Below are positions 3,145-29,162 of a DNA stretch of 32,000 nt, in pieces. Under the pieces are notes generated by a model that saw only the letters and a list, made by a program, of their open reading frames with translations, searched no databases and had not been told where the DNA came from. The stretch covers positions 14,354 through 46,353 of the forward strand of contig NZ_CP104094.1 in assembly GCF_033372575.1 (NCBI RefSeq), read 5' to 3'. The DNA comes from Candidatus Saccharimonadota bacterium. Its GTDB lineage: Bacteria > Bacteroidota > Bacteroidia > Flavobacteriales > Blattabacteriaceae. A program made the position numbers and the translations under genes. Numbering within the stretch: the stretch's first letter is position 1; each line of letters begins with the position of its first letter.

Positions 3145-3148
<4 letters not shown>
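2426..3148 (+). CDS. sufC: Fe-S cluster assembly ATPase SufC
   Basis: 240-aa ORF with Walker A GPNGSGKST, ABC signature FSGGEKKKNE and Walker B LVILDEIDSGLD. It ends in TGA, which overlaps an ATG (ATGA at 3145-3148). Confidence 0.9.
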
Positions 3149-4655
<1,507 letters not shown>

Positions 4656-6162: not shown

Positions 6163-6672
6163 ATGGAATATAATACTAAAAAAAGTAAAATAATATTTCC
6201 TCAATATGGAAGAAATATACAAAAATTAATAGAAGATACGTTAAAGAAATTAAAAAATACAAATAGAATAAGTCAATATATATATATATTAAAAATAATG
6301 AAAAATAAAAAAATTATAAGTAATATAAATATATATAAACGTATATTATGGGATCAATTATATTTATTAACTAATAAAAAATTAAAAAAAAAAGAATATC
6401 CATTTAAAAATAAAAAACCTATTTATTATTTAAAAAAAAAAAAAATTAAAAAATTAGATTATCCTAAAAATGGAAATGAATATAAATATTACGGAAAAAT
6501 AATACCAAAATTAATAAAAAGTATTAAAAAAATAAAAAATAAATATAAATATAAATATTATATAGCCAATAAAATGAAAATTAATTATATTAAATGGAAT
6601 AATAAAAAAAATATTAAATATAGTAATATATTAAATGATATAGAATTAATTTCAAAATTGAAAAAAAAATAA
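6163..6672 (+). CDS. DUF4290 family protein (Bacteroidota-typical conserved hypothetical)
   Basis: 169-aa ORF whose N-terminus MEYNTKKSKIIFPQYGRNIQKLIE...ILWDQLY matches my recollection of the DUF4290 signature (MEYN....L..PEYGR.IQK....KLWD.L). Confidence 0.55.
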   Translation: MEYNTKKSKIIFPQYGRNIQKLIEDTLKKLKNTNRISQYIYILKIMKNKKIISNINIYKRILWDQLYLLTNKKLKKKEYPFKNKKPIYYLKKKKIKKLDYPKNGNEYKYYGKIIPKLIKSIKKIKNKYKYKYYIANKMKINYIKWNNKKNIKYSNILNDIELISKLKKK

Positions 6673-8164: not shown

Positions 8165-10249
8165 ATGAATAAAAATAAATTAAAATATACTAGAAATATA
8201 GGAATAGTAGCGCATATTGATGCAGGAAAAACAACAACAACAGAAAGAATATTATATTATACAGGAAGAAGTCATAAAATAGGAGAGGTACATGAAGGAA
8301 ATACAACAATGGATTGGATGGAACAAGAGCAAGAAAGAGGGATAACAATAACATCTGCAGCAACTAGATGTATATGGAAATATAATAAAAAAGATTATTA
8401 TATAAATATAATAGATACTCCTGGTCATGTAGATTTTACAGTAGAAGTAGAAAGATCATTAAGAGTATTAGATGGAATGGTAGTATTATTTAGTTCAGTA
8501 GAAGGAGTAGAACCACAATCAGAAACAGTTTGGAAACAAGCAAATAAATATAAAATACCAAGAATAGGGTATGTAAATAAAATGGATAGAAAAGGTTCTA
8601 ATTACTTAAAAGTTTGTAAAGATGTAAAAAAAAAATTAAAATGTAATACGATTATATTACAATTGCCATTAGAAAAAGAGGGAAAATTTATAGGTATTAT
8701 AGATATAATATTAGAAAAATATATAATATGGGAGAATAAAAATTATGGAATGAAATATAATATAAAAGATATACCAGAGAATGAAATAGAAAAAATAAAA
8801 AAATATAAAAAAAAAATATTAGAGAATTTATCTGAATACGATGAAGAAATAATGAATAATTATTTAGAAGGAAAAAAAATTAAAAAAAAAAAAATAATAT
8901 CTATAATAAAAAAAGAAACATGTAAAATGAATTTAATACCTATGTTATGTGGTTCTTCATTTAAAAATAAAGGAGTACAAAAAATGTTAGATGCAATATG
9001 TATGTATTTACCTTCTCCTTTAAAATCAAAAAAAATAATAGGAATAGAAAAAATAAATAAAAAAAAATGTATTGTTAAACCAAATTATAAATATCCTTAT
9101 TGTTCATTAGTATTTAAAATATCTACTAATAAATATTATGGTAAATTAGTATTTATTAGAGTATATTCAGGAAGTTTAAAAGTTGGTGATTATGTATTAA
9201 ACTCAAGAACTAATAAAACCGAAAGAATATCCAGAATGTATCAAATGCATGCAAATAAACAAATTCCTATAAATAAAATATGTGCAGGAGATATATTTGC
9301 AGGAGTAGGATTAAAAGATATAAAAACAGGAGATACATTATGTGATGAAAATAATCCAATAATATTAGAAAAAATATTATTTCCTAAACCAGTTATGGGA
9401 ATAGCGATAGAAACAAAAATAAAATCTGAAATAGAAAAATTAAATTTAGCTTTATCTAAAATGGAAGAAGAAGATCCAACATTTAAAGTAAAAATGGATA
9501 ATAAAACAGGACAAATAATAATTTATGGAATGGGAGAATTACATTTAGATATTATAATAGATAGAATAAAAAGAGAATTTAATTTAGATATTAATAAAGG
9601 TAAACCAAAAGTAGAATATAAAGAAAAAATAACTAAAAAAATTACTCATAGAGAAATATATAAAAAACAGACAGGTGGAAGAGGAAAATTTGCAGAAATT
9701 TTATTTACTATAGGACCATATAAAAAAAAAGGATTAAAATTTATAAATAAAGTAAAAGGAGGGAATATTCCAAAGGAATATATAAGTTCAATAGAAAAAG
9801 GATTTAAATATTCTATGCAAATAGGGCCATTATTAGGATATGAAATAGATTCAATGGAAATAGTATTATTAGATGGATCTTATCATTCAGTAGATTCAGA
9901 TTCTTTATCATTTGAAATAGTAGCTAAAAATGGGTATAGAAATTCATCAAAAAAAACTAAACCAATAATAATGGAACCTATAATGAAATTAGTAATTAAT
10001 TGTCAAAATGAAAATATGGGTAATATAGTGAGTGATATAAATAAAAGAAGAGGAATAATAAAAAATATAATAGATAATAAAAATAATGAAAAAATAATTA
10101 ATGCTTTAGTACCTTTATCAGAAATGTTTGGGTATGTGACAATATTAAGATCATTATCATCAGGTAGAGCATATTCAAATATGATATTTTCACATTATGA
10201 AGAAGTACCAAAAAATATTTTAAATAAAATAATAGATAATAAATTATAA
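8165..10249 (+). CDS. fusA: Elongation factor G
   Basis: 694-aa ORF with GTPase motifs AHIDAGKTTTTERIL, DTPGHVDF and NKMD, plus conserved domain IV/V blocks. It is the most G+C-rich gene in the window. Confidence 0.95.
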   Translation: MNKNKLKYTRNIGIVAHIDAGKTTTTERILYYTGRSHKIGEVHEGNTTMDWMEQEQERGITITSAATRCIWKYNKKDYYINIIDTPGHVDFTVEVERSLRVLDGMVVLFSSVEGVEPQSETVWKQANKYKIPRIGYVNKMDRKGSNYLKVCKDVKKKLKCNTIILQLPLEKEGKFIGIIDIILEKYIIWENKNYGMKYNIKDIPENEIEKIKKYKKKILENLSEYDEEIMNNYLEGKKIKKKKIISIIKKETCKMNLIPMLCGSSFKNKGVQKMLDAICMYLPSPLKSKKIIGIEKINKKKCIVKPNYKYPYCSLVFKISTNKYYGKLVFIRVYSGSLKVGDYVLNSRTNKTERISRMYQMHANKQIPINKICAGDIFAGVGLKDIKTGDTLCDENNPIILEKILFPKPVMGIAIETKIKSEIEKLNLALSKMEEEDPTFKVKMDNKTGQIIIYGMGELHLDIIIDRIKREFNLDINKGKPKVEYKEKITKKITHREIYKKQTGGRGKFAEILFTIGPYKKKGLKFINKVKGGNIPKEYISSIEKGFKYSMQIGPLLGYEIDSMEIVLLDGSYHSVDSDSLSFEIVAKNGYRNSSKKTKPIIMEPIMKLVINCQNENMGNIVSDINKRRGIIKNIIDNKNNEKIINALVPLSEMFGYVTILRSLSSGRAYSNMIFSHYEEVPKNILNKIIDNKL

Positions 10250-11881: not shown

Positions 11882-12611
11882 GTACAATAAATTAATATAT
11901 GGAAAATTAAAATCAGGAGGTAGAAATAATCAAGGTAGAATAACGGTAAGATATATAGGAGGAGGCCATAAAAAAAAATATAGATTAATAGATTTTAAAA
12001 GAAATAAATATGATGTAATAGCAACAGTTAAAAAAAAAGAATATGATCCTAATAGATCATCATATATATCATTATTGTATTATAAAGATGGAGAAAAAAA
12101 ATATATTTTATCAGTAAAAGGATTAAAAATAGGAGATAGAATAATATCATCAAAAAAAAAATCATCATTAAATATAGGAGATTCAACTACATTAGATTTA
12201 ATTCCTTTAGGAACTATAATATGTTGTGTAGAAAATATACCAGGAAATGGAGCTATATATTCAAGAAGTGCAGGAACATATTCAAAATTAATATCAAAGG
12301 ATAAAAAATATGCAATTATAAAATTATCATCAAATGAAAAAAAAATGGTATTATTAAAGAGTATGGCAACAATAGGAAGTATATCAAATAAAAATCATAA
12401 ATTTAAAAAATTAAAAAAAGCAGGAAATAATAGATGGTTAGGAAAAAGACCAAGAACAAGAGGAGTAGCAATGAATCCTATTGATCATCCGATGGGTGGG
12501 GGTGAAGGTAAAGCATCAGGAGGACATCCAAAAAGTAGAAAAGGAATTTACGCAAAAGGATTTAAAACACGTAAAAAAAATAAAAAATATTCAAAATATA
12601 TTTTAAAATAA
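11853..12611 (+). CDS. rplB: 50S ribosomal protein L2 (N-terminally short)
   Basis: 252-aa ORF with SGGRNNQGRITVRYIGGGHKKKYRLIDFKR and GVAMNPIDHPMGGGEGK, the L2 signatures. Confidence 0.9.
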   Translation: MKIIKKKRFKYNKLIYGKLKSGGRNNQGRITVRYIGGGHKKKYRLIDFKRNKYDVIATVKKKEYDPNRSSYISLLYYKDGEKKYILSVKGLKIGDRIISSKKKSSLNIGDSTTLDLIPLGTIICCVENIPGNGAIYSRSAGTYSKLISKDKKYAIIKLSSNEKKMVLLKSMATIGSISNKNHKFKKLKKAGNNRWLGKRPRTRGVAMNPIDHPMGGGEGKASGGHPKSRKGIYAKGFKTRKKNKKYSKYILK

Positions 12612-13325: not shown

Positions 13326-14055
13326 TAGATTAGGAATAATTTATGGATGGAAATCAATATGGATAAAAAATTATTATTTAAATGTAAATGAAGATAATAG
13401 GATAAGAAAATATATAAATAATAGATATAAATATTGTATATCGACAATAATAATAGAAAAAATGAATAATAGAGTAGTAATAACTATATGTACATCTAAA
13501 CCTGCAATAGTAATAGGAAAAAAAGGAAAAGAAGTAGATAAGTTAAAAAAAGAAATAAATAATATAATAAAGAAAAAAGAATATTTATATTATAAAAAAA
13601 AAGAAAAAATAACTAAGAGATTTGTTTATATTAATGTAGTAGATGTAAAATATCCTGAAATAGATTCAATATTAGTATCTAAAAATATATGTAGACAAGT
13701 AGAAAGTAGAATATCTTATAAAAAATCTATTAAATATGCAATAAAATCAGCAATGAAAAAAAAAATAAAGGGAATAAAAATAAAAATATCAGGGAGATTA
13801 AATGGATCAGAAATAGCTAGAACAGAAGTATATAAAGAAGGAAGTATAAAATTGTCAACAATAAGATCAAATATTGATTATTCATTATCAGAAGCCAATA
13901 CTAAATATGGAAAAATAGGAGTTAAAGTCTGGATAATGAAAGGAGAAATATATGAAATGAAAAAATATTTCACTAATTATAATAAAGAATTAAAATATAA
14001 GTCAAAAAAAAAAAAAATAATAAGAGTAGGAAAAACATATAAAAAAGAGGAATAA
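13297..14055 (+). CDS. rpsC: 30S ribosomal protein S3
   Basis: 252-aa ORF MGQKSNPISNRLGII..W.S.W with the KH-domain block PAIVIGKKGKEVDKLKKE and SGRLNGSEIARTE. Confidence 0.9.
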   Translation: MGQKSNPISNRLGIIYGWKSIWIKNYYLNVNEDNRIRKYINNRYKYCISTIIIEKMNNRVVITICTSKPAIVIGKKGKEVDKLKKEINNIIKKKEYLYYKKKEKITKRFVYINVVDVKYPEIDSILVSKNICRQVESRISYKKSIKYAIKSAMKKKIKGIKIKISGRLNGSEIARTEVYKEGSIKLSTIRSNIDYSLSEANTKYGKIGVKVWIMKGEIYEMKKYFTNYNKELKYKSKKKKIIRVGKTYKKEE

Positions 14056-14060
14056 TAATT

Positions 14061-14660
14061 ATGTATATACCAAGAATAAAATTATTATATGAAAAAAAAG
14101 TAATTAATAATTTAAAAAAAAAATTAAAATATAAAAATATAATGCAAGTACCTAAATTAAAAAAAATTGTAATTAATATAGGGGTAGGGGTAAGAAATAA
14201 AAATAATATAGTAGATACTATGGAAGATTTATCATTATTAACAGGTCAAAAATCAACTTATAGATTATCAAAAAAAGATATATCAGGATTAAAATTAAGA
14301 AAAGGAACAAAAATAGGATGTATGGTAACATTAAGAAGAAATATAATGTATGAATTTTTAGAAAGATTAATTTCAGTAGCATTACCAAGATCAAAAGATT
14401 TTAATGGAATAAAAGAAAATAGTTTTGATGGAAAAGGAAATTATAATTTAGGTATAAAAGAACATATAATATTTCCAGAAATTAATTTTGAAAAAGTAAA
14501 AAGAATTTATGGAATGAATATAAGTTTTGTAACAAGTACAAAAGATGATAATTCAGCTAAAGAATTATTAATAAATTTAGGATTACCATTTAAAAATAAT
14601 AATATATATGGAGGAAGATGCAAAAGAATTATAAAAAGAAAAAAAAATAAAAAAAAATAG
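14061..14660 (+). CDS. rplE: 50S ribosomal protein L5
   Basis: 199-aa ORF with NIMQVPKLKKIVINIGVG, LSLLTGQK, LRKGTKIGCMVTLRR and YEFLERLISVALPR..DF.G. Confidence 0.9.
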   Translation: MYIPRIKLLYEKKVINNLKKKLKYKNIMQVPKLKKIVINIGVGVRNKNNIVDTMEDLSLLTGQKSTYRLSKKDISGLKLRKGTKIGCMVTLRRNIMYEFLERLISVALPRSKDFNGIKENSFDGKGNYNLGIKEHIIFPEINFEKVKRIYGMNISFVTSTKDDNSAKELLINLGLPFKNNNIYGGRCKRIIKRKKNKKK

Positions 14661-14663
14661 GAA

Positions 14664-15047
14664 ATGGATACTATCGGAAATTATTTAACATTAATAAGAA
14701 ATGCATGTAATGTTAAAAAAAAATATGTAAAAGTAAATTATTCAAAAATAAATAAAAATATAACTAAAGTATTATATAATAATAATTATATAAAAAAATA
14801 TAAAATATATAAAAATAAAATTAAGAAAATAAAAATATATTTAAAATATATAAATAATAATTCAGTAATAAGAAAAATAAAAAGAATAAGTAAACCAAGT
14901 TTAAGAAAATATTTAAAATATAAAAATATTTATAAAGTATTAAATGGATATGGAATATCAATAATATCTACTTCAAGTGGAGTAATGACAGGAAAAGAAG
15001 CAAAAATTAAAAAAATAGGAGGAGAAATATTATGTATAATATATTAA
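14664..15047 (+). CDS. rpsH: 30S ribosomal protein S8
   Basis: 127-aa ORF with DTIGNYLTLIRNA and the C-terminal GISIISTSSGVMTGKEAKIKKIGGEILC. Confidence 0.9.
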   Translation: MDTIGNYLTLIRNACNVKKKYVKVNYSKINKNITKVLYNNNYIKKYKIYKNKIKKIKIYLKYINNNSVIRKIKRISKPSLRKYLKYKNIYKVLNGYGISIISTSSGVMTGKEAKIKKIGGEILCIIY

Positions 15048-15060
15048 ATAAAATAATAAT

Positions 15061-15615
15061 ATGTCAAGAATAGGAAAAAAATATATAATTATTCCTAATA
15101 ATGTAAATATATATAAAAAAGATAAATATATATATGTAAAAGGAAAATTAGGCAATTTAAAACAAAAAATAAATAATAATATAATAATAAAAATATTAGA
15201 AGATAAAATATATTTAATAAATAAAAAAAAAAATATTAAAAAATATAAAAGTTTACATGGACTTTATAGAATGTTAATATATAATATGATAAAAGGAGTA
15301 AATAAAGGATATAATAAAAAATTAAAATTAGTAGGAGTAGGATATAATGCAATAGGAAATGGGCAAATATTAAATTTAAATGTAGGATATTCACATAAAA
15401 TAGTAATGAAATTTTGTAAAGAAATAAATATAACAACAGAAAAGGAAATAGGAGATAATAATAATATAATAATAAATATTTTTTGTATTAATAAACAATT
15501 ATTAGGAATAGTAGCATCAAAAATAAGATCTTTAAAAAAACCTGAACCATATAAAGGAAAAGGTATAAGATATATAAATGAAAAAATAATAATTAAAAAA
15601 GGAAAATCAGTATAA
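15061..15615 (+). CDS. rplF: 50S ribosomal protein L6
   Basis: 184-aa ORF MSRIGKKYIIIP with GVGYNA and the C-terminal PEPYKGKGIRY motif. Confidence 0.9.
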   Translation: MSRIGKKYIIIPNNVNIYKKDKYIYVKGKLGNLKQKINNNIIIKILEDKIYLINKKKNIKKYKSLHGLYRMLIYNMIKGVNKGYNKKLKLVGVGYNAIGNGQILNLNVGYSHKIVMKFCKEINITTEKEIGDNNNIIINIFCINKQLLGIVASKIRSLKKPEPYKGKGIRYINEKIIIKKGKSV

Positions 15616-15625
15616 TAATATAATA

Positions 15626-15946
15626 ATGAAAGGTAATAATAGAAATATAAGAAATATGAATATACCAAGATTATCAGTATTTAGAAGTAATAAAGAAATA
15701 TATGTTCAAATAATAGATGATATTAATCAAATTACACTAATATCATATTCTTCAATAATAGAAAAAAAAAAAAATAATAAAAAAATGACTAAATCAGAAA
15801 TGTCAAATATAGTAGGAAAAAAAATAGCTGAAAAAATGTTAAAATTAAAGATTAAAAAAATATTTGTAGATATAAAAAAATATAGATATAAAGGAAGAAT
15901 AAAAATTTTAATAGAAGCAATTAGAAAAAATGGAATAAAAATATAA
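15626..15946 (+). CDS. rplR: 50S ribosomal protein L18
   Basis: 106-aa ORF with PRLSVFRSNKEIYVQIIDD, in the canonical position. Confidence 0.85.
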   Translation: MKGNNRNIRNMNIPRLSVFRSNKEIYVQIIDDINQITLISYSSIIEKKKNNKKMTKSEMSNIVGKKIAEKMLKLKIKKIFVDIKKYRYKGRIKILIEAIRKNGIKI

Positions 15947-15953
15947 AAAAAAA

Positions 15954-16442
15954 ATGATAAAAATAAAAGATATTAAAGAAAAGATAGTTAAAATAAAAAG
16001 AGTATGTAAAGTTACAAAAGGAAGAAGAGATTTTAGTTTTACTTGTATAATAGTAAAAGGTAATTATAATGGAATAGTAGGTTATGGAATGGGAAAAGCA
16101 AAAGAAATTCCAAATTCTATATATAAAGCTGAAGTAAAAGCTAATAAAAATTTAATAAAAATTCCAATAGTAAATGAAACTATTCCTCATGAACAAAGTT
16201 ATAAATATTGTAGTTCAAAAATATTATTATATCCAGCTTATAAAGGAACTGGAGTAATTGCAGGAGGATCTGCAAGAATAGTATTAGAATTAGCAGGAAT
16301 AAAAAATGTATACGCAAAATTTATAGGCTCTTCTAATGTATATAATTGTGTAAAAGCAACTTATAATGCATTAAAAGAAATAAAAGAAAATTATTATTTA
16401 AAATTAAAAATTAATGAAAATATCAAAAAACAAAAAAAATGA
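15954..16442 (+). CDS. rpsE: 30S ribosomal protein S5
   Basis: 162-aa ORF with IKRVCKVTKGRRDFSF, VGYGMGKAKEIP and GTGVIAGGSARIVLELAGIKN. Confidence 0.9.
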   Translation: MIKIKDIKEKIVKIKRVCKVTKGRRDFSFTCIIVKGNYNGIVGYGMGKAKEIPNSIYKAEVKANKNLIKIPIVNETIPHEQSYKYCSSKILLYPAYKGTGVIAGGSARIVLELAGIKNVYAKFIGSSNVYNCVKATYNALKEIKENYYLKLKINENIKKQKK

Positions 16443-16518
16443 TCATTAAAAAAAATTTGAAAATGGTATAAAATAAAAATTATATGAAAGTAATACTAAA
16501 AAAACATAAATTAATAAT

Positions 16519-16938
16519 ATGAATAACGAACTAAATAAAAAAAAAATGAAAAAGAAGAAAATTAAAAATAAATTAAAAAAAAAAAAAATATATTATGGGG
16601 ATGGAAATATATATATACATTCTACATTTAATAATATAATTATATCATTAACGGATAAAAAAGGTAATGTTTTAGCATGGTCTTCATCCGGTAAAATGAA
16701 ATTAAAAGGATCAAAAAAAAATACTCCATTTGCAGGACAAATAACAGCTAAAAATATTTGTGAAAAATGTATTCAATTAGGTATAAAAAAAGTAAGTATA
16801 ATAATTAAAGGACCAGGTTCTGGAAGAGAATCAGCTATAAGAACAATAAGTAATAATGGGATTAATATTAGATCAATAAAAGATAGAACACCATTACCTC
16901 ATAATGGATGTAGACCACCAAAAAAAAGAAGAATATAA
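16519..16938 (+). CDS. rpsK: 30S ribosomal protein S11 (with a Lys-rich N-terminal extension)
   Basis: 139-aa ORF with [22 protein letters not shown] and the C-terminal [17 protein letters not shown]. Confidence 0.9.
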
Positions 16939-16949
16939 TATAATAAATT

Positions 16950-17555
16950 ATGTCAAGATATATAGGACCAAGAAATAAAATTTCAAGAAGATTAAATAAA
17001 TATATATACGGAAATAAAAAATATTTTAAAAAAAAACAATATCCACCAGGTCAACATGGTTTATTAAAAAAAAGAATAGTAAAAAAATCTAATTATTATA
17101 TTCAATTATTAGAAAAACAAAAAGTAAAATATAAATATGGAATATTAGAAAAACAATTTAAAAGAATGTTTAATATAGTAAATAAAAAAAAAGGAATAAC
17201 AGGAGAATTATTATTACAAATGTGTGAACGTAGATTAGATAATGTAGTATATAGAATAGGTTATGCAGTATCTAGATATGCAGCTAGACAATTAGTGACT
17301 CATAAACATATTAAAGTAAATAATAAAACTATTAATATACCTTCATTTAATATAAAAATAGGTGATATAATCTCATTAAATGAAAAAATGAAAAATAATA
17401 TAAATGTTTTAAATGCATTAACAATAAATAAAAATAAAAATAAAGATTGGTTAAAATGGAATGAAGAAAATATGTCTTCAGAATGTTTAAAATTACCTAA
17501 TATAAAAAATATAGACATTGATCATCAATTAATTGTAGAATTATATAATAAATAA
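16950..17555 (+). CDS. rpsD: 30S ribosomal protein S4
   Basis: 201-aa ORF MSRYIGPRNKISRRL with an S4 RNA-binding domain (RRLDNVVYRIGYAVSRYAARQLVTHKHIKVN). Confidence 0.9.
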   Translation: MSRYIGPRNKISRRLNKYIYGNKKYFKKKQYPPGQHGLLKKRIVKKSNYYIQLLEKQKVKYKYGILEKQFKRMFNIVNKKKGITGELLLQMCERRLDNVVYRIGYAVSRYAARQLVTHKHIKVNNKTINIPSFNIKIGDIISLNEKMKNNINVLNALTINKNKNKDWLKWNEENMSSECLKLPNIKNIDIDHQLIVELYNK

Positions 17556-17585
17556 TTATATAATAAATAATTATATAATAAATTA
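17541..17585. repeat. 15-nt tandem triplication of the last four codons plus stop of rpsD
   Basis: TTATATAATAAATAA occurs at 17541-17555 and 17556-17570, then TTATATAATAAATTA at 17571-17585. The unit equals the rpsD codons L-Y-N-K-stop. The rpoA ATG follows at 17588. Confidence 0.9.
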
Positions 17586-17587
17586 TT

Positions 17588-18307
17588 ATGAAAGATTTTA
17601 AAATAATAATAAAAAAAAATAATAAAAATTTAGGAATATTTAAAATTTACAATATAAATAGTGGTTATGGAGTTATAATAGGTAATTCTTTAAGAAGAGT
17701 TTTATTATCTTCTATATATGGTTATGCAATAAATTATTTTAAAATAAAGGGAATAAAACATGAATTAAGTTATATAAAAGGGTTTATAGAAGATGTACCT
17801 GAAATAATTTTAAATTTAAAAAAAATAAGATTTAAATTAAAAAATTCTAAAAAAAAAATAAAAACAGAAAAAATAAATATTAAAATAAATAATAAAAAAA
17901 ATAAAATATATGCAGGGGAAATAGAAAAATATTCAAAATATTTTAAAATAATAAATAAAAAATTAATAATTTGTAATAAAGATGAAAAAGCAAAGTTTAA
18001 TATAAAAATAATAGTAAAAAAAGGAAAAGGATATATAGAAAGTGAAAATAAACCAAGATATAAAGATTATATAGCTATTGATAGTATTTATACACCAATT
18101 TTAAATGTAAAATATTTTATTAAACAAATAGATAACTACAATGAAAATATTGAAAAAATAGATATTTTAAGAATAGAAATTTTAACTGATAGTTCAATAA
18201 AACCTCTAAAGGCATTAATAAAAGCTTCTAAAATTTTAATTAAAAATTTTAATAATTTAATAAATAAAAAACAATATTTTAAAATACGTGAGACATATAA
18301 AAAATAA
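17588..18307 (+). CDS. rpoA: DNA-directed RNA polymerase alpha subunit, N-terminal domain only (no alpha-CTD)
   Basis: 239-aa ORF with GYGVIIGNSLRRVLLSSI (alpha NTD signature) in the canonical slot between rpsD and rplQ. It ends about where the NTD ends in ~330-aa alpha subunits, and rplQ overlaps its 3' end. Confidence 0.85.
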   Translation: MKDFKIIIKKNNKNLGIFKIYNINSGYGVIIGNSLRRVLLSSIYGYAINYFKIKGIKHELSYIKGFIEDVPEIILNLKKIRFKLKNSKKKIKTEKINIKINNKKNKIYAGEIEKYSKYFKIINKKLIICNKDEKAKFNIKIIVKKGKGYIESENKPRYKDYIAIDSIYTPILNVKYFIKQIDNYNENIEKIDILRIEILTDSSIKPLKALIKASKILIKNFNNLINKKQYFKIRETYKK

Positions 18308-18659
18308 AAAAAATTTAAGTAGAAAATATTCACATAGAAAAAGTTTGTTATCTAATTTGTCATGTAATTTAATTATTTATAAATCTATATATACTACTTT
18401 ATGTAAAGCAAAAGAATTACAAAAATATATTGAGCCAATAATAAATAAATTAAAAAAAAATAATATTCATACTAAAAGAATAATATTAAAAAAATTAAAA
18501 AATAAAAAAGTAGTAAAAATTTTATTTAATGAAATTTTAAAAAAAACTATTAATAGAAAAGGAGGATATACAAGAATTTTAAAATTTGGATATAGAAAAG
18601 GAGATGCATCTATAATGTCAATAATACAATTAGTTGATTATTATAAAATAAATGAATAA
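18288..18659 (+). CDS. rplQ: 50S ribosomal protein L17
   Basis: 123-aa ORF MRHIKNKKNLSRKYSHRKSLLSNL...TTLCKAKEL...GGYTRILKFGYRKGD. Confidence 0.9.
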   Translation: MRHIKNKKNLSRKYSHRKSLLSNLSCNLIIYKSIYTTLCKAKELQKYIEPIINKLKKNNIHTKRIILKKLKNKKVVKILFNEILKKTINRKGGYTRILKFGYRKGDASIMSIIQLVDYYKINE

Positions 18660-21251
18660 TTATAATTTTAAAATAATAAATAAAAAAATATATAAAATTT
18701 GGTTAAAAAAAAAATATTTTAATTCTAATTTCAATATAAAGAAAAAACCTTATTTATTATTACTTCCTCCCCCTAATATAACAGGAGATTTACATATTGG
18801 ACATATATTAAATAGTACTATATTAGATATATTAGCAAGAAGACATAGAATGTTAGGATATAATGTATGTTGGATACCTGGAACAGATCATGCTTCTATA
18901 GCTACAGAAATAAAAGTAATAAAAGAATTAAAAAACAATGGAATAAATATAAAAAATTTAAGAAAAAAAAAATATTATAAAATATTATTAAATTGGGCTA
19001 AAAAATATAATAAAATTATAATTAAACAATTAAAAAGTATAGGTTGTTCATGTGATTGGAATAGAAAACAATTTACTATGGATAAAAATAATTATAAATC
19101 TGTAATTAAAGTATTTATAAAATTATATGAAAAAGGAATAATATATAAAAAAAATAAATTAGTAAATTGGGATACTTATGCAAAAACTACAATTTCTGAT
19201 GAAGAAATAATATATAAAAAAATAAAAAAAACTTTATATTATATAAAATATTTTACAGAGGATAAAAAAAAATATTTAGTAATAGCTACTACAAGACCAG
19301 AAACAATATTTGGAGATACTGCTGTATGTATTAATCCAAAAGATAAAAGATATAAAAATTTTATAAATTATAAATTAATAGTTCCAATAGTAAATAGAGT
19401 AATACCAATAATAACAGATAAATCAGTAGATAAAAATTTTGGAACAGGATGTATAAAAATTACTCCTGCCCATAGTAAAGAAGATTATAAAATATATAAA
19501 AAACATAAATTAAATATAATTAATATTTTTAATGACGATGGTACATTAAATGAAAATTGTAAGTATTTAAAAGGTAAAGATAGATTTTATGGAAGAAAAA
19601 AAATTTATAAAAAATTGAAAAAATTAGGAAATTTAGTAAAAAAAGAAAAAATAATAAGTAAAATAGCTTATTCAGATAGATCAAATACAATAATAGAAAA
19701 TAAATTATCTTCACAATGGTTTTTAAAAATGAAATATTTAATTCAACCTGTATTAAAAAAAATAAAAAATATAATATTTTATCCTAAAAATAAATATAAT
19801 AATTTATGTAATAAATGGTTAAATAATATTAAAGATTGGAATATTTCAAGACAATTAAAATGGGGACATAGAATACCAGTTTATTATTATAAAAATAATT
19901 TAGTAGTAGCAAAAAATTTTAAAAATGCTATTAAAAAATTAAAAAATAAATATAAAAAAATTAACATAAATAATATAAAACAAGATAAAGATGTATTAGA
20001 TACTTGGTTTTCTTCTTGTATATTACCAATATCAGTATTATATGGTATAAATAAACCTAATAATATTGATTTTAATTATTATTTTCCTATAGAAATATTA
20101 GTTACTGGTTATGATATATTATTTTTTTGGGTTTTAAGAATGATAATGTTAAGTTGTTTTTTAATAAAAAAAAATCCATTTAAAAAAGTATATTTAACAG
20201 GTATAGCAAGAGATAATAATAAAATTAAAATATCTAAATCTTTAGGAAATTATAAAAATTTATATGTATTATTAAACAAATATGGTGCAGATGGAATAAG
20301 AACAGGAATATTAAGTACTAATTTTGAATATGATTTTATTTTTAATGATAATTTATGTATAAAAGGTAGAAATTTTATAAATAAAATATGGAATGCATTT
20401 CAATTAATAATAAAAATTAAATATAAAGTAAAACAAAATAATAAAAAAAAAACAAAAAAACTAAATAAAATAATGGTAAAATGGTTTAAAAATATTTTAT
20501 ATTATAAAATATATAAATTAAATAATTATTTAGATAATTATAAAATATATAAATCATTTATTTTAATAAAAAATTTATTTAAAAAAACATTTTGTTCTAT
20601 ATATTTAGAGTATATTAAAAAACAAATAAAAGATAAATATTTAATTAAAAAAACTTTTAATTATTTTTATATCTTATTAAAAATTTTACATCCATATGCT
20701 CCTTTTATAACGGAATATATTTGGAAATTATTAAAAAAAAAAAAAATATAACAATTTCTAGTTGGCCTAAAATTAAAAAATTTAATAAAAAAATAATAAA
20801 TAAATTTAATAATACATTAAATTTTATAAAATATTTAAATACTATTAAATATTCAAATAATAATAATGTAATTTATATATATAAAAGTAATAAACAGAAT
20901 TTTAAAAATAATATATATATTAAATTAATATATAAATTGACTTTAATAAAAAAAATTAAAATAAAAAGTAAATTAAAAAATAAAAATAAATATTTATTAT
21001 TTATTTATAAAAATATAATTTTTTTTTTATTAAAAAAAAAAATAATATTTAATAAAAATAATGAAAATAAAAAAATATATAAAAAAATAAAGTATTATAA
21101 AAAATATTTATTAAATATAAATAATAAATTAAAAAATAAACAATATTTATTAAAAGCACCTATTAAAATAATAAATTTAGAAAAAAAAAAAAAAAAAGAT
21201 ATTGTAAAATTAATAATAAATTTAAAAAAAAAAATATTAATTAATAAATAA
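18652..21251 (+). CDS. valS: Valyl-tRNA synthetase, split by a frameshift in an A14 run (20733-20746)
   Basis: The 699-aa ORF carries PPPNITGDLHIGH (HIGH) and KISKSLGN (KMSKS) and ends ...LHPYAPFITEYIWKLLKKKKI*. The next ORF, in the -1 frame, continues ...NITISSWPKIKKF..., as expected for ValRS after PFITEE.W, and supplies the C-terminal ~170 aa. Together they give about 875 aa, a normal ValRS length. Confidence 0.85.
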
Positions 21252-21341: not shown

Positions 21342-21923
21342 ATGAATAATACGGAAAAAATAAAAAATAATAATATGGATATTAATATCGATAAAAAAAG
21401 TAATATCGATAAAAATATTAATATCGATAAAAAAAGTAATATCGATAAAAATATTAATATCGATAAAAAAAGTAATATCGATAAAAAAAATAATATCGAT
21501 AAAAAAAGTAATAAAGAAAATTATAAAGATAAATATTTAAGAACATTAGCAGAATTTGAAAATTATAAAAATAGAAATGAAAAGGAAAATAAAAAAATAT
21601 ATAAAAATTATAAAGGACAAATAATAAATAATATTTTACCTATATTAGATGATTTTGAACGTTATATAAAAGAAGAAAAAATAACAAAAAAAAATGGGAT
21701 ATATTTAATATATAAAAAATTTATAAGTATTTTAGAAAATAATGGACTTAAAAAAATAGAGGTTAAAATTGGTGATAAATTTAATTATGATATACATAAT
21801 GCTATATCTAAAAAAAAAGTGAATAATGAAAAAATGAAAAATAAAATAGTTAAAATATTAGAAGAAGGTTATTATATATACGATAAATTAATTCGTTGTG
21901 CAAAAGTAATAGTAGGTTATTAA
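21342..21923 (+). CDS. grpE: Nucleotide exchange factor GrpE (with an N-terminal repeat expansion)
   Basis: 193-aa ORF with KDKYLRTLAEFENYKNR, ILPILDDFER and the C-terminal KVIV block. It lies upstream of dnaJ. Confidence 0.85.
   Translation: MNNTEKIKNNNMDINIDKKSNIDKNINIDKKSNIDKNINIDKKSNIDKKNNIDKKSNKENYKDKYLRTLAEFENYKNRNEKENKKIYKNYKGQIINNILPILDDFERYIKEEKITKKNGIYLIYKKFISILENNGLKKIEVKIGDKFNYDIHNAISKKKVNNEKMKNKIVKILEEGYYIYDKLIRCAKVIVGY
21381..21513. repeat. 36-nt in-frame tandem repeat (about 3.7 copies) inside grpE
   Basis: ATTAATATCGATAAAAAAAGTAATATCGATAAAAAT occurs at 21381-21416 and 21417-21452 (identical). A third copy at 21453-21488 has 1 mismatch, and a partial copy runs to about 21513. 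The repeat encodes (NIDKKSNIDKNI)n, and each unit holds two ATCGAT sites. Confidence 0.9.
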
Positions 21924-22999: not shown

Positions 23000-23930
23000 A
23001 TGAAAAAAGTAGTAATAGCATTATCAGGAGGAGTAGATTCAAGTGTATCAGCATATTTATTAAAAAAAATGGGATATGAAGTTATAGGAATATTTATGTA
23101 TAATTGGAGTAATAATAATTGTATGTGGGAGGATATAAGAGATGCAATGTTAATATCAAATAAATTAAAAATACCATTTTATGTTTTTGATTTAAGAAAA
23201 GAATATAGGAAAGGAGTAATAAATTATATGTATGAAGGATATAAAAAAGGAATTACTCCTAATCCTGATATAATATGTAATGAAAAAATAAAATTTGGGA
23301 TATTTTTAAAGAAAGCATTAAAACTAAAAGTCGATTATATAGCAACTGGTCATTATGTAAGAAAAAAAAAAATTTATAATAAAAAAAAAATTATTTATTG
23401 TTTATTATCAGGTAAAGATAAAAAAAAAGATCAATCTTATTTTTTATGTAGATTAAATCAATATCAATTATCTAAAAGTTTATTTCCATTAGGCAATTTA
23501 ACTAAAAAGGAAGTAAGAAAATTAGCATTAAAATTAAAATTTTATAATGCTTATAAAAAAGACAAAGAAAACATTTAAATATAAAAGGATATAAATATCC
23601 TTTATTTTTATTTTATAAAAATAAAAATAGAAATATATTATATGTATGTAAAAAAAATCATAAAGAATTATATAAAAAATTTATTTTTATAAAAAAAAAA
23701 CTATACATTGGATAAGAAAAAAATATATATTAAATTTAATAAAAAAAAATAAAGGAAAAATAAAAGTAATGTGTAAAATAAGATATAATCAAAATATGGA
23801 AAAAGCAATTTTATTTTTTAATAATTTAGGTATTTTAGTAAAATTTGATAAAAATCAATTTGCAGTTACTCCAGGCCAATTTATTGTATGGTATATTAAT
23901 AATGAATTAATAGGTTCAGGAATAATATGA
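23000..23930 (+). pseudogene. mnmA: tRNA 2-thiouridine synthase MnmA, decayed (two frameshifts plus an internal deletion)
   Basis: Frame A (23000-23578) has the PP-loop ALSGGVDSS and NPDIICNEKIKF and ends ...AYKKDKENI*. Frame B (about 23557-23715) reads KRQRKHLNIKG...NILYVCKKNHKELYKKFIFIKKK. Frame C (23676-23930) reads TIHWIRKK...KIRYNQ...FAVTPGQFIVWYINNELIGSGII*. The DS.GICFIG block that normally follows KKD is absent. Confidence 0.75.
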
Positions 23931-25207
23931 AAAAAATAGCCTTTTTTACTATTGGATGTAAATTAAATTTTTCTGAAACTTCAATAATTAGTAAAAGTTT
24001 TAATAAAAAAAAATATAAAATAGTAGATTTTAAAGATTATGCTGATATATATGTAATAAATACATGTGCAGTTACTCACAAAGCTGAAAAAGATTTAAAA
24101 TATAAAGTAAAATATATATTAAAAAAAAATAATAAGGCATTTATAATAGCATTAGGTTGTTATTCACAAATTGAAAAAAAAAAATTATATAATATTAAAG
24201 GAATAAATTTAGTATTAGGTAATGATAAAAAATTTAATATTATTGATTATATAGAAAAAAAAAAAAATATATATTCTTGTGAATTATTTACATTACCTAA
24301 CGAATATAAAGATGCATATTCAATAGAAAAAAATAGAACTAGATCTTTTTTAAAAATACAAGATGGATGTAATTATAAATGTTCATATTGTACAATACCA
24401 TTAGCTAGAGGATTATCACGTTCTAATAGTATTAAAAATATTATAAATAATATATATTATATTTTAAATAAAGGAATAAAAGAAATAGTTTTAACAGGAG
24501 TAAATATAGGAGATTATAAATATAATAATAAAGATTTTTTATTTTTAATAAAAAAAATAGATAAAATAAAAAAGTTAAAAAGAATAAGAATATCTTCAAT
24601 AGAACCTAATTTATTAACAGATAATATAATAAAATTTATATCTAAAAGTAAAAAATTTTTAAATCACTTTCATATACCATTACAATCAGGTAGTGATTAT
24701 ATTTTAAAAAAAATGAGAAGAAGATATTTAACTAAACTATATTTAAATAAAATAAATAAAATAATATCTATAATACCAGATGCTTGTATAGGTTCTGATG
24801 TAATAGTAGGTTTTCCGGGTGAAAAAAATAAATATTTTATGGAAACTTATAATTTAATAAAATCAATAAAAATATCATATTTACATGTATTTTCTTTTTC
24901 ACCTAGAAAAAACACTATAGCATTAAAAATGAAAAATAAAATAGATAATAATAGAATAAAATATAGAAGTAAAATATTAAGACAAATATCTTATTTAAAA
25001 ACTAGATTATTTTATAAAAAATTTTTAGGTACTAAAAGAAAAGTATTATTTGAAAATAAAAAAAATGATTGGATATATGGTTATACAGATAATTATATAA
25101 AAGTTAAAATAAAAGGTTCTAATAAAAATAGAAATAAAATTATAAATGTAATTTTAGAAAAAATAGAAAATAATAAAAATATAATAATAGGAAAAATTGA
25201 AAAATAA
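23927..25207 (+). CDS. mtaB: Radical-SAM methylthiotransferase, MtaB (YqeV)-like
   Basis: 426-aa ORF. The N-terminus KIAFFTIGCKLNFSET...DFKDYADIYVINTCAVT...LGCYSQ resembles MtaB/YqeV rather than MiaB. It has the radical-SAM motif CNYKCSYC and a C-terminal TRAM-like region. Confidence 0.7.
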   Translation: MKKIAFFTIGCKLNFSETSIISKSFNKKKYKIVDFKDYADIYVINTCAVTHKAEKDLKYKVKYILKKNNKAFIIALGCYSQIEKKKLYNIKGINLVLGNDKKFNIIDYIEKKKNIYSCELFTLPNEYKDAYSIEKNRTRSFLKIQDGCNYKCSYCTIPLARGLSRSNSIKNIINNIYYILNKGIKEIVLTGVNIGDYKYNNKDFLFLIKKIDKIKKLKRIRISSIEPNLLTDNIIKFISKSKKFLNHFHIPLQSGSDYILKKMRRRYLTKLYLNKINKIISIIPDACIGSDVIVGFPGEKNKYFMETYNLIKSIKISYLHVFSFSPRKNTIALKMKNKIDNNRIKYRSKILRQISYLKTRLFYKKFLGTKRKVLFENKKNDWIYGYTDNYIKVKIKGSNKNRNKIINVILEKIENNKNIIIGKIEK

Positions 25208-28241: not shown

Positions 28242-29162
28242 TTAATTTAAAAGATATTTTTCTACATCTAAAGCCGCCATACATCCAGATCCAGCAGATG
28301 TTATAGCTTGTCTATATTTTTTATCTTGTACCTCACCAGCTGCAAATATTCCAGGTATATTAGTTTTTGTAGATTTTTTTTTAGTAATTATATATCCTGT
28401 TTTATCCATTTTTATTTTATTTTTAAATATTAATGTATTTGGATAACTTCCTATAGCTATAAATACCCCTGATACTTTAATAGTAATAATTTTATTTTTA
28501 TTATTTAATAAATTAATATATTTTAATTTTTTATCACCTAAAAATTTATTTACTTTTTTATTAAATAATATTTTTATATTTTTTATTTTATATAATATAT
28601 TTTGTAAATATTTTGAAGCTTTTAATTTATTTTTTCTAACTATTAAATAAATTTTTTTACATATTTTAGATAATAATATACTATCCTCTAATGCTGTATC
28701 TCCTCCTCCAATAACAGCTACTTTTTTTTTTTTATAAAACATTCCATCACATATAGCACAATATGAAATACCATAACCTAAATATTTTTTTTCATATTTA
28801 ATATTTAAATATTTAGGTAATGAACCAGTTGCTATTATTACTGATTTTGTAATAATTTTTTTATTATCTTTAGTATACAAAATATGTAATTTTTTATTAT
28901 TTAATGATACTTTTAATATTTTATTATATTTTATTTTTGTACCAAATTTAATTGCTTGTTTATACATTTCTGACATTAATTTTCTCCCTAATATCCCTTT
29001 AGAAAAACCTGGATAATTTTCCACAATTGTAGTATTTACTAATTGTCCCCCTGGTAAATCACCAGTATATAAATAATGTTTAATATTAGATCTAGCTAAA
29101 TATATAGCTGATGTATATCCTGCTGGTCCTGAACCAATTATTACACAATCTATAATTTTCAT
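28242..29162 (-). CDS. trxB: Thioredoxin reductase
   Basis: 306-aa ORF with FAD motif IIGSGPAGYTSAIY, redox centre CAICDG, NADPH motif VIGGGDTALED and the C-terminal GIFAAGEV. Confidence 0.9.
   Translation of the reverse strand: MKIIDCVIIGSGPAGYTSAIYLARSNIKHYLYTGDLPGGQLVNTTIVENYPGFSKGILGRKLMSEMYKQAIKFGTKIKYNKILKVSLNNKKLHILYTKDNKKIITKSVIIATGSLPKYLNIKYEKKYLGYGISYCAICDGMFYKKKKVAVIGGGDTALEDSILLSKICKKIYLIVRKNKLKASKYLQNILYKIKNIKILFNKKVNKFLGDKKLKYINLLNNKNKIITIKVSGVFIAIGSYPNTLIFKNKIKMDKTGYIITKKKSTKTNIPGIFAAGEVQDKKYRQAITSAGSGCMAALDVEKYLLN

Follow-up and report, generated by a model that had tools for sequence, protein, structure and literature searches.

How can the gene of an enzyme as indispensable as valyl-tRNA synthetase (ValRS) be broken at a single run of A's and yet look intact on either side of it? 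The question is raised by valS in a 32,000-nucleotide (nt) stretch of contig NZ_CP104094.1 (positions 14,354 to 46,353 of the forward strand, hereafter the window), in which the reading frame changes inside a run of exactly 14 A's, flanked by TT on the 5′ side and by T on the 3′ side. An earlier interpretation made from the letters of the window (the sequence-only reading) had likened this break to the poly(A) frameshifts of insect endosymbionts that are rescued by transcriptional slippage, with a homopolymer error or a two-piece enzyme as alternatives. We tentatively favour the same explanation, a real A14 lesion rescued by slippage of RNA polymerase; the homopolymer-error alternative stays nearly as likely, given the artefacts of the assembly graph described below. 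Close relatives of the 699-amino-acid (aa) valS open reading frame (ORF) are confined to 'Candidatus Shikimatogenerans bostrichidophilus', and the host sequence is a 157-kb Bacteroidota genome (156,922 bp) of an endosymbiont of bostrichid beetles. The window has a G+C content of 16%, with A making up 51% of the + strand, and genetic code table 11 applies, TGA being read as a stop (it terminates sufC and mnmA, for instance).

Upstream of the break (N-part), the gene encodes the Rossmann fold, the editing domain and about two-thirds of the anticodon-binding domain. The class-I catalytic core is present, and so are both signature motifs that the sequence-only reading had recognised, with HIGH at residue 48 and KISKS, the KMSKS equivalent, at residue 526. 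Pfam matches were found to tRNA-synt_1 (PF00133, E=7e-110) and Anticodon_1 (E=3e-11), the latter covering residues 610–697 (profile positions 2–96 of 148) and ending at the frameshift. The N-part aligns with residues 7–707 of Thermus thermophilus ValRS (1gax, E=4.5e-136), placing the break at about residue 700 of that enzyme, reportedly near the end of the helix-bundle domain (Fukai et al. 2000). Truncation here leaves out the coiled-coil arm and the final third of the anticodon-binding model of Pfam. The N-part ends in ...PFITEYIWKLLKKKKI (...LLKKKKI), followed by TAA at 20749–20751; the earlier interpretation had this stop right, its only slip, a trivial one, being the omission of the last codon (ATA, Ile).

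The continuation of the protein, NITISSWPKIKKF..., lies one nt back, in a frame that is open from 20661 to the stop at 21249–21251 (C-part). This part holds the distal anticodon-binding region as well as the tRNA-binding coiled-coil arm of the C-terminus. The C-termini of sister ValRS proteins align with all of it, and it has a weak match to Val_tRNA-synt_C (PF10458; E=8e-4, 20 bits) that falls under the 25.9-bit cut-off. The off-frames of valS contain 109 and 142 stops per 866 codons (12.6–16.4%), hence 167 open codons are not a product of chance (p ~1e-10). The frame change is confined to 20661–20748, and homology narrows it to the inside of the A-run, between KKKK and N/D-ITIS. Frame is restored by one additional A or by two fewer, and insertion of one A yields a ValRS of 866 aa with zero stops, where the sequence-only reading had estimated about 875; the anticodon-binding domain and coiled-coil arm, not found on one polypeptide as sequenced, are joined by this single base. 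The location of the split, the conserved continuation in the −1 frame and the lack of a second valS in the window were all borne out, and the 156,922-bp contig gave a single ValRS protein among the 120 matches listed (E<=1e-100). The long run is itself ordinary in this window, which has 95 A-runs of at least 9 nt and 13 of at least 14 nt (37 and 1.3 in shuffled sequences); the unusual part is the change of frame.

The earlier interpretation had named sister genomes as a check on the frameshift, and none of the six compared at this site shares it. These were L001 (NZ_CP104096, strain C, 160,463 bp; 93% aa identity to the window N-part in the best tblastn segment), L002 (CP099827, 200,477 bp; 74% aa identity), L004 (CP104095), L005 (CP099821), L006 (CP099824) and L007. 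In-frame alleles consist of A13-G-A in L001 (15 nt, KKKKD), A3-T-A11 in L004 (15 nt, NKKKN), A11 in L005, L006 and L007 (KKKN) and AAAAAATAAAGAAGA in L002 (KNKED), which has no long run. The window, with A14 encoding KKKKI and then a stop, is out of frame and 1 nt shorter than L001 and L004 exactly at the A-run. As the frame is intact in all six sisters, the lesion is, on this comparison, private to the window strain, and the in-frame ancestor was most probably TTA(AAA)4AAT, i.e. A15, from which one A would since have been lost. The coordinates of these and other features are collected in Table 1.

Table 1. Coordinates of the split valS gene and of other features discussed in the text.
Feature	Sequence	Position	Strand	Details
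valS N-part	window	18652..20751	+	ATG 18652, 699 codons and TAA; ORF list, Pfam, motifs, 1gax alignment
A14 homopolymer, site of frame change	window	20733..20746	+	Sequence; 15 nt required to keep frame
valS C-part, -1 frame, NITISSWPK...LINK and stop	window	20745..21251	+	167 codons and the Asn codon overlapping the run
TTG, sole candidate start for separate C-part translation	window	20721..20723	+	The ORF list starts the C-frame ORF here
Disrupted valS 3′ end	L005 (CP099821)	12150-12600		Leaves frame 25 codons past the site; at least three frameshifts at A-runs and an in-frame stop
Disrupted valS 3′ end	L006 (CP099824)	6440-6600		T5/T6 shift; pure A39 run in the coiled coil replacing KKIIKIERKKKK, a mixed Lys/Ile/Glu/Arg stretch
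Disrupted valS 3′ end	L002 (CP099827)	8480-8520		Last ~40 residues (coiled coil) lost
Exact-match segments vs L001/L004	window	15472-15599, 17029-17156, 19028-19154, 23561-23687, 24278-24405, 28585-28712		
mnmA	window	23000-23930		Broken; junction 23560/23561
mnmA second lesion	window	23691-23700		A9-T-A to A10, T lost
sufD	window	3145-4655		ATG 3145 overlaps the sufC stop
sufD A-runs	window	3213-3240, 3275-3333, 3335-3364, 3366-3467, 3482-3496		A28, A59, A30, A102 and A15
Ribosomal-cluster junctions	window	14055-14061, 14660-14664, 16442-16519		
Ribosomal-cluster junctions	L001	2976-5078		
rpoA	window	17588-18307		
GrpE N-terminal repeat region	window	21342-21560		(NIDKKS/NIDKNI)n
GrpE N-terminal repeat region	L001	8563-9000		(NVTE/NVTNE)n, much longer, with an ambiguous base
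Methylthiotransferase gene-ligA overlap	window	25191-25207		11 nt, two frames
Methylthiotransferase gene-ligA fusion	L004 (CP104095)	15165-18146		993-aa ORF

Both halves of the gene appear to be under constraint. Codon alignments of the repaired window valS with L001 and L004 (N-part taken as codons 143–698) gave ratios of nonsynonymous to synonymous substitution rates (dN/dS) of 0.23–0.35 for the N-part in the three pairwise comparisons, and for the C-part of 0.28 between the window and L001 and 0.34 between L001 and L004. In each lineage the rate of the tail is roughly double that of the core (dN 0.067–0.29 in the C-part, 0.032–0.14 in the N-part). An eroding pseudogene would be expected to show several lesions and lost constraint, a description that does not fit valS of the window, with its one lesion; mnmA, by contrast, carries two lesions in the window, and at least four are present in the L005 valS tail. 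Decay of valS across the clade, as might be read from the missing first 126 codons of the gene in L001 and L004, was rejected, the junctions being a de Bruijn-graph artefact with 127–128-nt exact matches on both sides. The gene is among the most retained synthetase genes of insect Bacteroidota symbionts (bioRxiv 10.1101/2025.10.31.685726). The frameshift may have arisen very recently or may be unreal; alternatively, selection still acts on the tail.

Under the explanation we favour, the tract would be a hypermutable lysine-coding homopolymer that lost one base in the window strain (A15 to A14), and the absence of decay in valS would mean that full-length ValRS is still needed and made by the cell. 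RNA polymerase would slip backwards on the 14-nt A:T hybrid and add one A to a sizeable fraction of transcripts, restoring the frame, and ribosomes sliding on poly(A) may contribute a further −1 shift. Unslipped mRNA would give a truncated product of 699 aa, ending one codon past the run. The mRNA pool would be heterogeneous in length whether the DNA holds A14 or A15, making the difference between the window strain and its in-frame sisters a quantitative one; sisters with A11–A13 would likewise make many wrong transcripts. Several published observations bear on this mechanism. Genome-wide error profiling found that transcription insertions are mostly of a single nt in Escherichia coli and Buchnera, that homopolymer insertions all lie in A or T runs with the inserted base always matching the run, and that longer runs bring an exponential increase in the insertion rate, as far as the maximum run lengths of 9 nt (E. 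coli) and 11 nt (Buchnera) allowed it to be followed (PMC5574713). The correction that valS needs is the +1 insertion prevailing on long A/T runs, hence rescue by slippage is plausible. In Buchnera and Blochmannia genes frameshifted at poly(A), 12–50% of transcripts are corrected, according to PMC5009743, which cites Tamas 2008, and Blochmannia vafer has eight poly(A)-frameshifted genes, including dnaG, dnaX and pth (PMC3017870). Sliding of E. coli ribosomes on homopolymeric A or consecutive AAA codons has also been described (Koutmou et al. 2015, PMC4363877).

A number of findings weigh against this explanation. The frameshift is seen in none of the six sister strains, hence the sign of selective maintenance is missing, and with it the strongest comparative argument made for Blochmannia, that selection has kept an old frameshift. 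What stands of the slippage proposal in the sequence-only reading is a single −1-nt lesion in poly(A), in a gene otherwise intact, that one added A would correct; a conserved frameshift it does not have. The dN/dS of the C-part reached 0.76 between the window and L004, and private amino-acid changes there are three times as frequent in the window as in L001 (15 and 5, with 15 in L004), although the excess over the N-part (25 in the window, 14 in L001, 35 in L004) is not significant; these higher figures would fit early relaxation. The 3′ end of valS is, furthermore, independently disrupted in three other published strains, L005, L006 and L002, while ValRS is full-length (856–879 aa) in most strains among the matches listed. 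Either constraint on the tail is weak throughout the genus, or all these projects had difficulty in assembling A/T-rich 3′ ends. The argument from essentiality is weakened by this damage, at least for the C-part: that ValRS is indispensable, as had been argued for the window gene, stands for the whole enzyme and is less clear for its 167-aa tail. The literature cited here offers no slippage rates for Bacteroidota polymerases or for tracts longer than 11–12 nt. Finally, the sole source of the count of 14 is the assembly consensus, the longest exact matches of the window genome to L001 and L004 pile up at exactly 127–128 nt (six cases), and a gap in mnmA is suspicious, being directly followed by a 127-nt three-way identity.

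These last points lead to the most serious competitor, an error of consensus or assembly, which we regard as quite possible. The genome would then hold A15, or a population mix of A14 and A15, with the shorter run produced by polymerase chain reaction stutter, Illumina phasing error or bulge-collapsing, and valS would be intact. The commonest in-vitro artefact of a 15-nt mononucleotide run is a −1 contraction, which counts in favour of this explanation, as does the perfect state of valS apart from the run. With A15 the protein would read KKKKN-ITIS, and Asn at this position agrees with L004, L005, L006 and L007. Assembly artefacts are demonstrable in these genomes. Besides the 127/128-nt matches that flank 'deletions', the exact-match lengths between the window and L001 or L004 show a second spike at 56 nt, and the 'missing' segments of 3.4 kb in L001 and 1.9 kb in L004, both including valS codons 1–126, are bounded on each side by 127–128 nt of identity. 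L001 lacks the interval from rplR to valS codon 126 and L004 that from the C-terminus of rpsD to valS codon 126. Match lengths of this kind are the signature of k and k+1 of a SPAdes-like de Bruijn assembler run with k=55/127, and imply that the three 152–160-kb genomes were split from one mixed-strain short-read graph in which shared segments were assigned to a single strain. The 'deletions' of L001 and L004, including the N-terminally truncated valS, are almost certainly artefacts, and it is conceivable that a bulge was collapsed to the wrong homopolymer length in the window genome.

The gene mnmA, encoding a tRNA 2-thiouridylase, is broken in the window by a gap of 196 nt relative to L001 and 205 nt relative to L004 that removes the DSQGLCF motif with the catalytic Cys. 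This gap is probably an assembly artefact. The second mnmA lesion, in which the T of an A9-T-A tract is lost to give A10, is of the same type as that of valS; it is the only other intragenic 1-nt lesion and sits 139 nt from the k-mer junction, a proximity that speaks for assembly error as a source of such lesions.

Against a miscount stands the behaviour of other homopolymers. About 25 kb of the window was aligned at the nucleotide level with L001 and L004 to catalogue indels whose length is not a multiple of three. This took the place of a tblastn search for split genes, run without composition statistics, in which Lys-rich off-frames aligned through frameshifts and valS was missed. Intragenic indels were nearly all multiples of three, and the exceptions within window genes were the valS site and the two mnmA lesions only. 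All 22 other A-runs of at least 11 nt inside intact window ORFs are in frame; A14 accounts for six of these (including those at 333, 723, 6432, 14004 and 16575), A13 for five and A17 for one; five tracts in sufD were kept apart from this count, the body frame of that gene differing from its ATG frame. L001 and L004, apparently products of the same pipeline, also show no clear homopolymer frameshift in the regions compared, with a few ambiguous indels that are not multiples of three in rpsS, rpsC and the miaB-ligA junction. The per-run rate of miscounting must therefore be low. A chimeric path between co-assembled strains was ruled out as the source of A14, since SNPs (single-nucleotide polymorphisms) private to the window flank the run within a few bases and no 127-nt match ends there. 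Bases private to the window strain include T20703 and, directly past the run, ATAACA in place of the ATTACT of the other strains.

A metagenome scan with strain-specific flanks and 11–19 variable bases gave zero matches and hence no independent assembly, an exact-protein look-up with the 699-aa product returned no record, and a literature search by accession found no paper describing CP104094–CP104096. Kiefer et al. 2023 (PMC10284843) mention neither frameshifts nor homopolymers nor pseudogenes. The sequencing platform of the window genome was deduced from the k-mer signature only.

An unlikely explanation is that the frameshift is real and marks the first step of C-terminal erosion, the 699-aa ValRS being a working enzyme whose tail is becoming dispensable in the genus, so that rescue is unneeded. 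The independent disruptions of the tail in L005, L006 and L002 fit this explanation, as do the roughly twofold rate of the C-part in all comparisons and the position of the break near residue 700 of the T. thermophilus enzyme. It is opposed by the 167 window codons that are still open and recognisably conserved, by tail dN/dS of 0.28–0.34 in the pairs involving L001, by the 856–879 aa kept by most strains among the matches listed and by the removal of about one-third of the Pfam anticodon-binding model.

More doubtful still is a bolder version of the slippage explanation, in which lysine-coding A-tracts have become so long in the smallest Shikimatogenerans genomes (152–160 kb) that several housekeeping genes no longer have their frame fixed by DNA. 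The frame would instead be chosen later, by a slipping polymerase or a sliding ribosome, and the shift in valS would be real, tolerated because transcripts would vary in frame at any A-count. More speculatively, the window strain may be one of several co-resident lineages with complementary losses, rplP-rplX and rpsN being retained only in strain C. Examples would be the A14 of valS and the A28, A59, A30 and A102 of sufD. The latter gene, located between sufC and sufS, is the second case in the window of a reading frame that hinges on poly(A), with run lengths that are untrustworthy from any platform. Its ATG frame stops just past the A28 run, and a body of about 490 codons with conserved C-terminal SufD motifs is open one base back, with no ATG, GTG or TTG in that frame over most of its length; the runs would encode about 85 lysines. 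In the CP104095 strain (L008) sufD has no poly(A) expansion (KQKKNKIKDK) and contains a TAA at codon 36, the remainder being open.

It is very improbable that valS is a fresh pseudogene in one of several co-resident, mutually dependent strains, as in Hodgkinia, with other strains supplying the function. The k=127 signatures do imply one sample for the three 152–160-kb genomes, and rplP-rpsQ-rplN-rplX and rpsN are found only in L001, no L14 protein being on record from the 156,922-bp or 151,789-bp genomes; the ribosomal-gene junctions carry no k-mer signature and look like real deletion scars. A mis-partitioned mixed assembly graph is, however, a simpler source of most of this patchwork. No route is known by which bacterial cells share a synthetase, valS has a single lesion, and residence in one host is an assumption.

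The S10-spc-alpha cluster of the window lacks rplP, rpsQ, rplN, rplX, rpsN, rplO, infA, rpmJ and rpsM, all of which are present in the 190–200-kb strains. The genes rplP-rplX and rpsN occupy the syntenic place in L001, and L004 is without them, although a diverged remnant of the 3′ end of rplX is left there as a scar. These ribosomal genes may be absent because the assembly is incomplete, because they were relocated, or because strains that occur together have undergone complementary losses.

The two-piece enzyme put forward as an alternative by the sequence-only reading, with the 699-aa N-part and a C-part translated from TTG 20721 assembling non-covalently, found no support and is likewise very improbable. 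A TTG opens the C-frame ORF 12 nt ahead of the run, and split class-I synthetases are known elsewhere, for example the LeuRS of Aquifex. This TTG is, however, the only available start, no ATG or GTG being present in the C-frame between 20661 and the run and no initiation signal having been found, and it sits within conserved N-part codons (W-K-L-L). ValRS is split in none of the six sister strains, and the lesion is a 1-nt homopolymer change, unlike an evolved gene boundary.

Least probable is a dnaX-type programmed −1 frameshift by ribosomes at A_AAA_AAA, setting a ratio of short to long ValRS, which was rejected as neither downstream structure nor conservation was found: the run does contain overlapping A AAA AAA slippery heptamers (X XXY YYZ) with a 0-frame stop two codons after it, but the 100 nt at 20747–20846 fold at −3.8 kcal/mol (z=+0.85; 163 of 200 shuffles at least as stable) and the two-frame arrangement occurs in none of the six sister strains.

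Other genes of the window also differ from those of related strains. RpoA is only 239 aa long in the window and lacks the alpha C-terminal domain, where L002, L006 and L007 have 314–318 aa with PF03118, and rplQ starts with a GTG that overlaps the end of rpoA. GrpE begins with tandem repeats that vary among strains: large in-frame indels distinguish the window, L001 and L004, the repeats of L004 being different again from those listed in Table 1. A radical-SAM methylthiotransferase gene (UPF0004 and Radical_SAM) overlaps ligA in the window, and the two are fused in CP104095 via a 5-nt junction difference.

If A14 is true, slippage-dependent expression of an essential translation gene would be extended beyond the symbionts among Gammaproteobacteria to one of the Bacteroidota, whose genome ranks with the smallest known, on a tract longer than any studied so far, and a substantial share of frame-incorrect ValRS mRNA would be suggested in these organisms. 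If it is a miscount, a single homopolymer base makes annotation pipelines call an essential gene a pseudogene. Either way, three related 'complete' genomes show k-mer-sized assembly signatures and differ in their content of essential ribosomal-protein genes, hence inferences on gene content and pseudogenes need raw reads.

The closest known systems are the poly(A) frameshifts of Buchnera aphidicola and Blochmannia (Tamas et al. 2008; Wernegreen et al. 2010; Williams & Wernegreen 2010, PMC3017870), and, if real, the window valS would join this known class of endosymbiont frameshifts, an assignment that the evidence supports in part. The likeness extends to an AT-rich, tiny obligate insect endosymbiont, a single indel in an A-run of at least 9 nt in a housekeeping gene otherwise intact, possibly the lack of a clear rate acceleration downstream, and a frame that one A added in the mRNA would restore. 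Unlike these Gammaproteobacteria, the window host belongs to the Bacteroidota, and its A14 tract exceeds the 12 bp reached in obligate symbionts generally (Williams & Wernegreen, PMC3017870). The Blochmannia frameshifts are conserved, arguing for selection (PMC3017870), whereas that of the window is private to one strain and known from an assembly alone.

Outside this class, tssM of Citrobacter rodentium (PMC4256274) is an interrupted gene that gives truncated and full-length variants through polymerase slippage in an A-run, as predicted here for valS; for tssM, slippage was demonstrated experimentally and both variants are functional, whereas the two products of valS are predicted. The 14 A's hold four successive AAA codons with an out-of-frame stop right after them, resembling the substrates of ribosome sliding (Koutmou et al. 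2015, PMC4363877), although in those reporters sliding mainly cuts output by premature termination, making it at most a possible contributor in valS. Programmed slippage and frameshifting in dnaX (PMC5009743) likewise involve an A-rich slippery tract and two products with different C-termini, but in dnaX the sites are conserved, with stimulators at those where ribosomes shift, unlike the unconserved valS site without downstream structure. Finally, in the human DMD variant c.2281delG (PMC12946587), A4GA5 becomes A9 and transcriptional slippage restores the frame in part. That is a case of RNA polymerase II on a much shorter run, and the ancestral state of valS (A15 or A13-G-A) is inferred; the type of lesion may nevertheless match, an interrupting base (cf. 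A13-G-A in L001) having been lost and the longer run being slippery itself.

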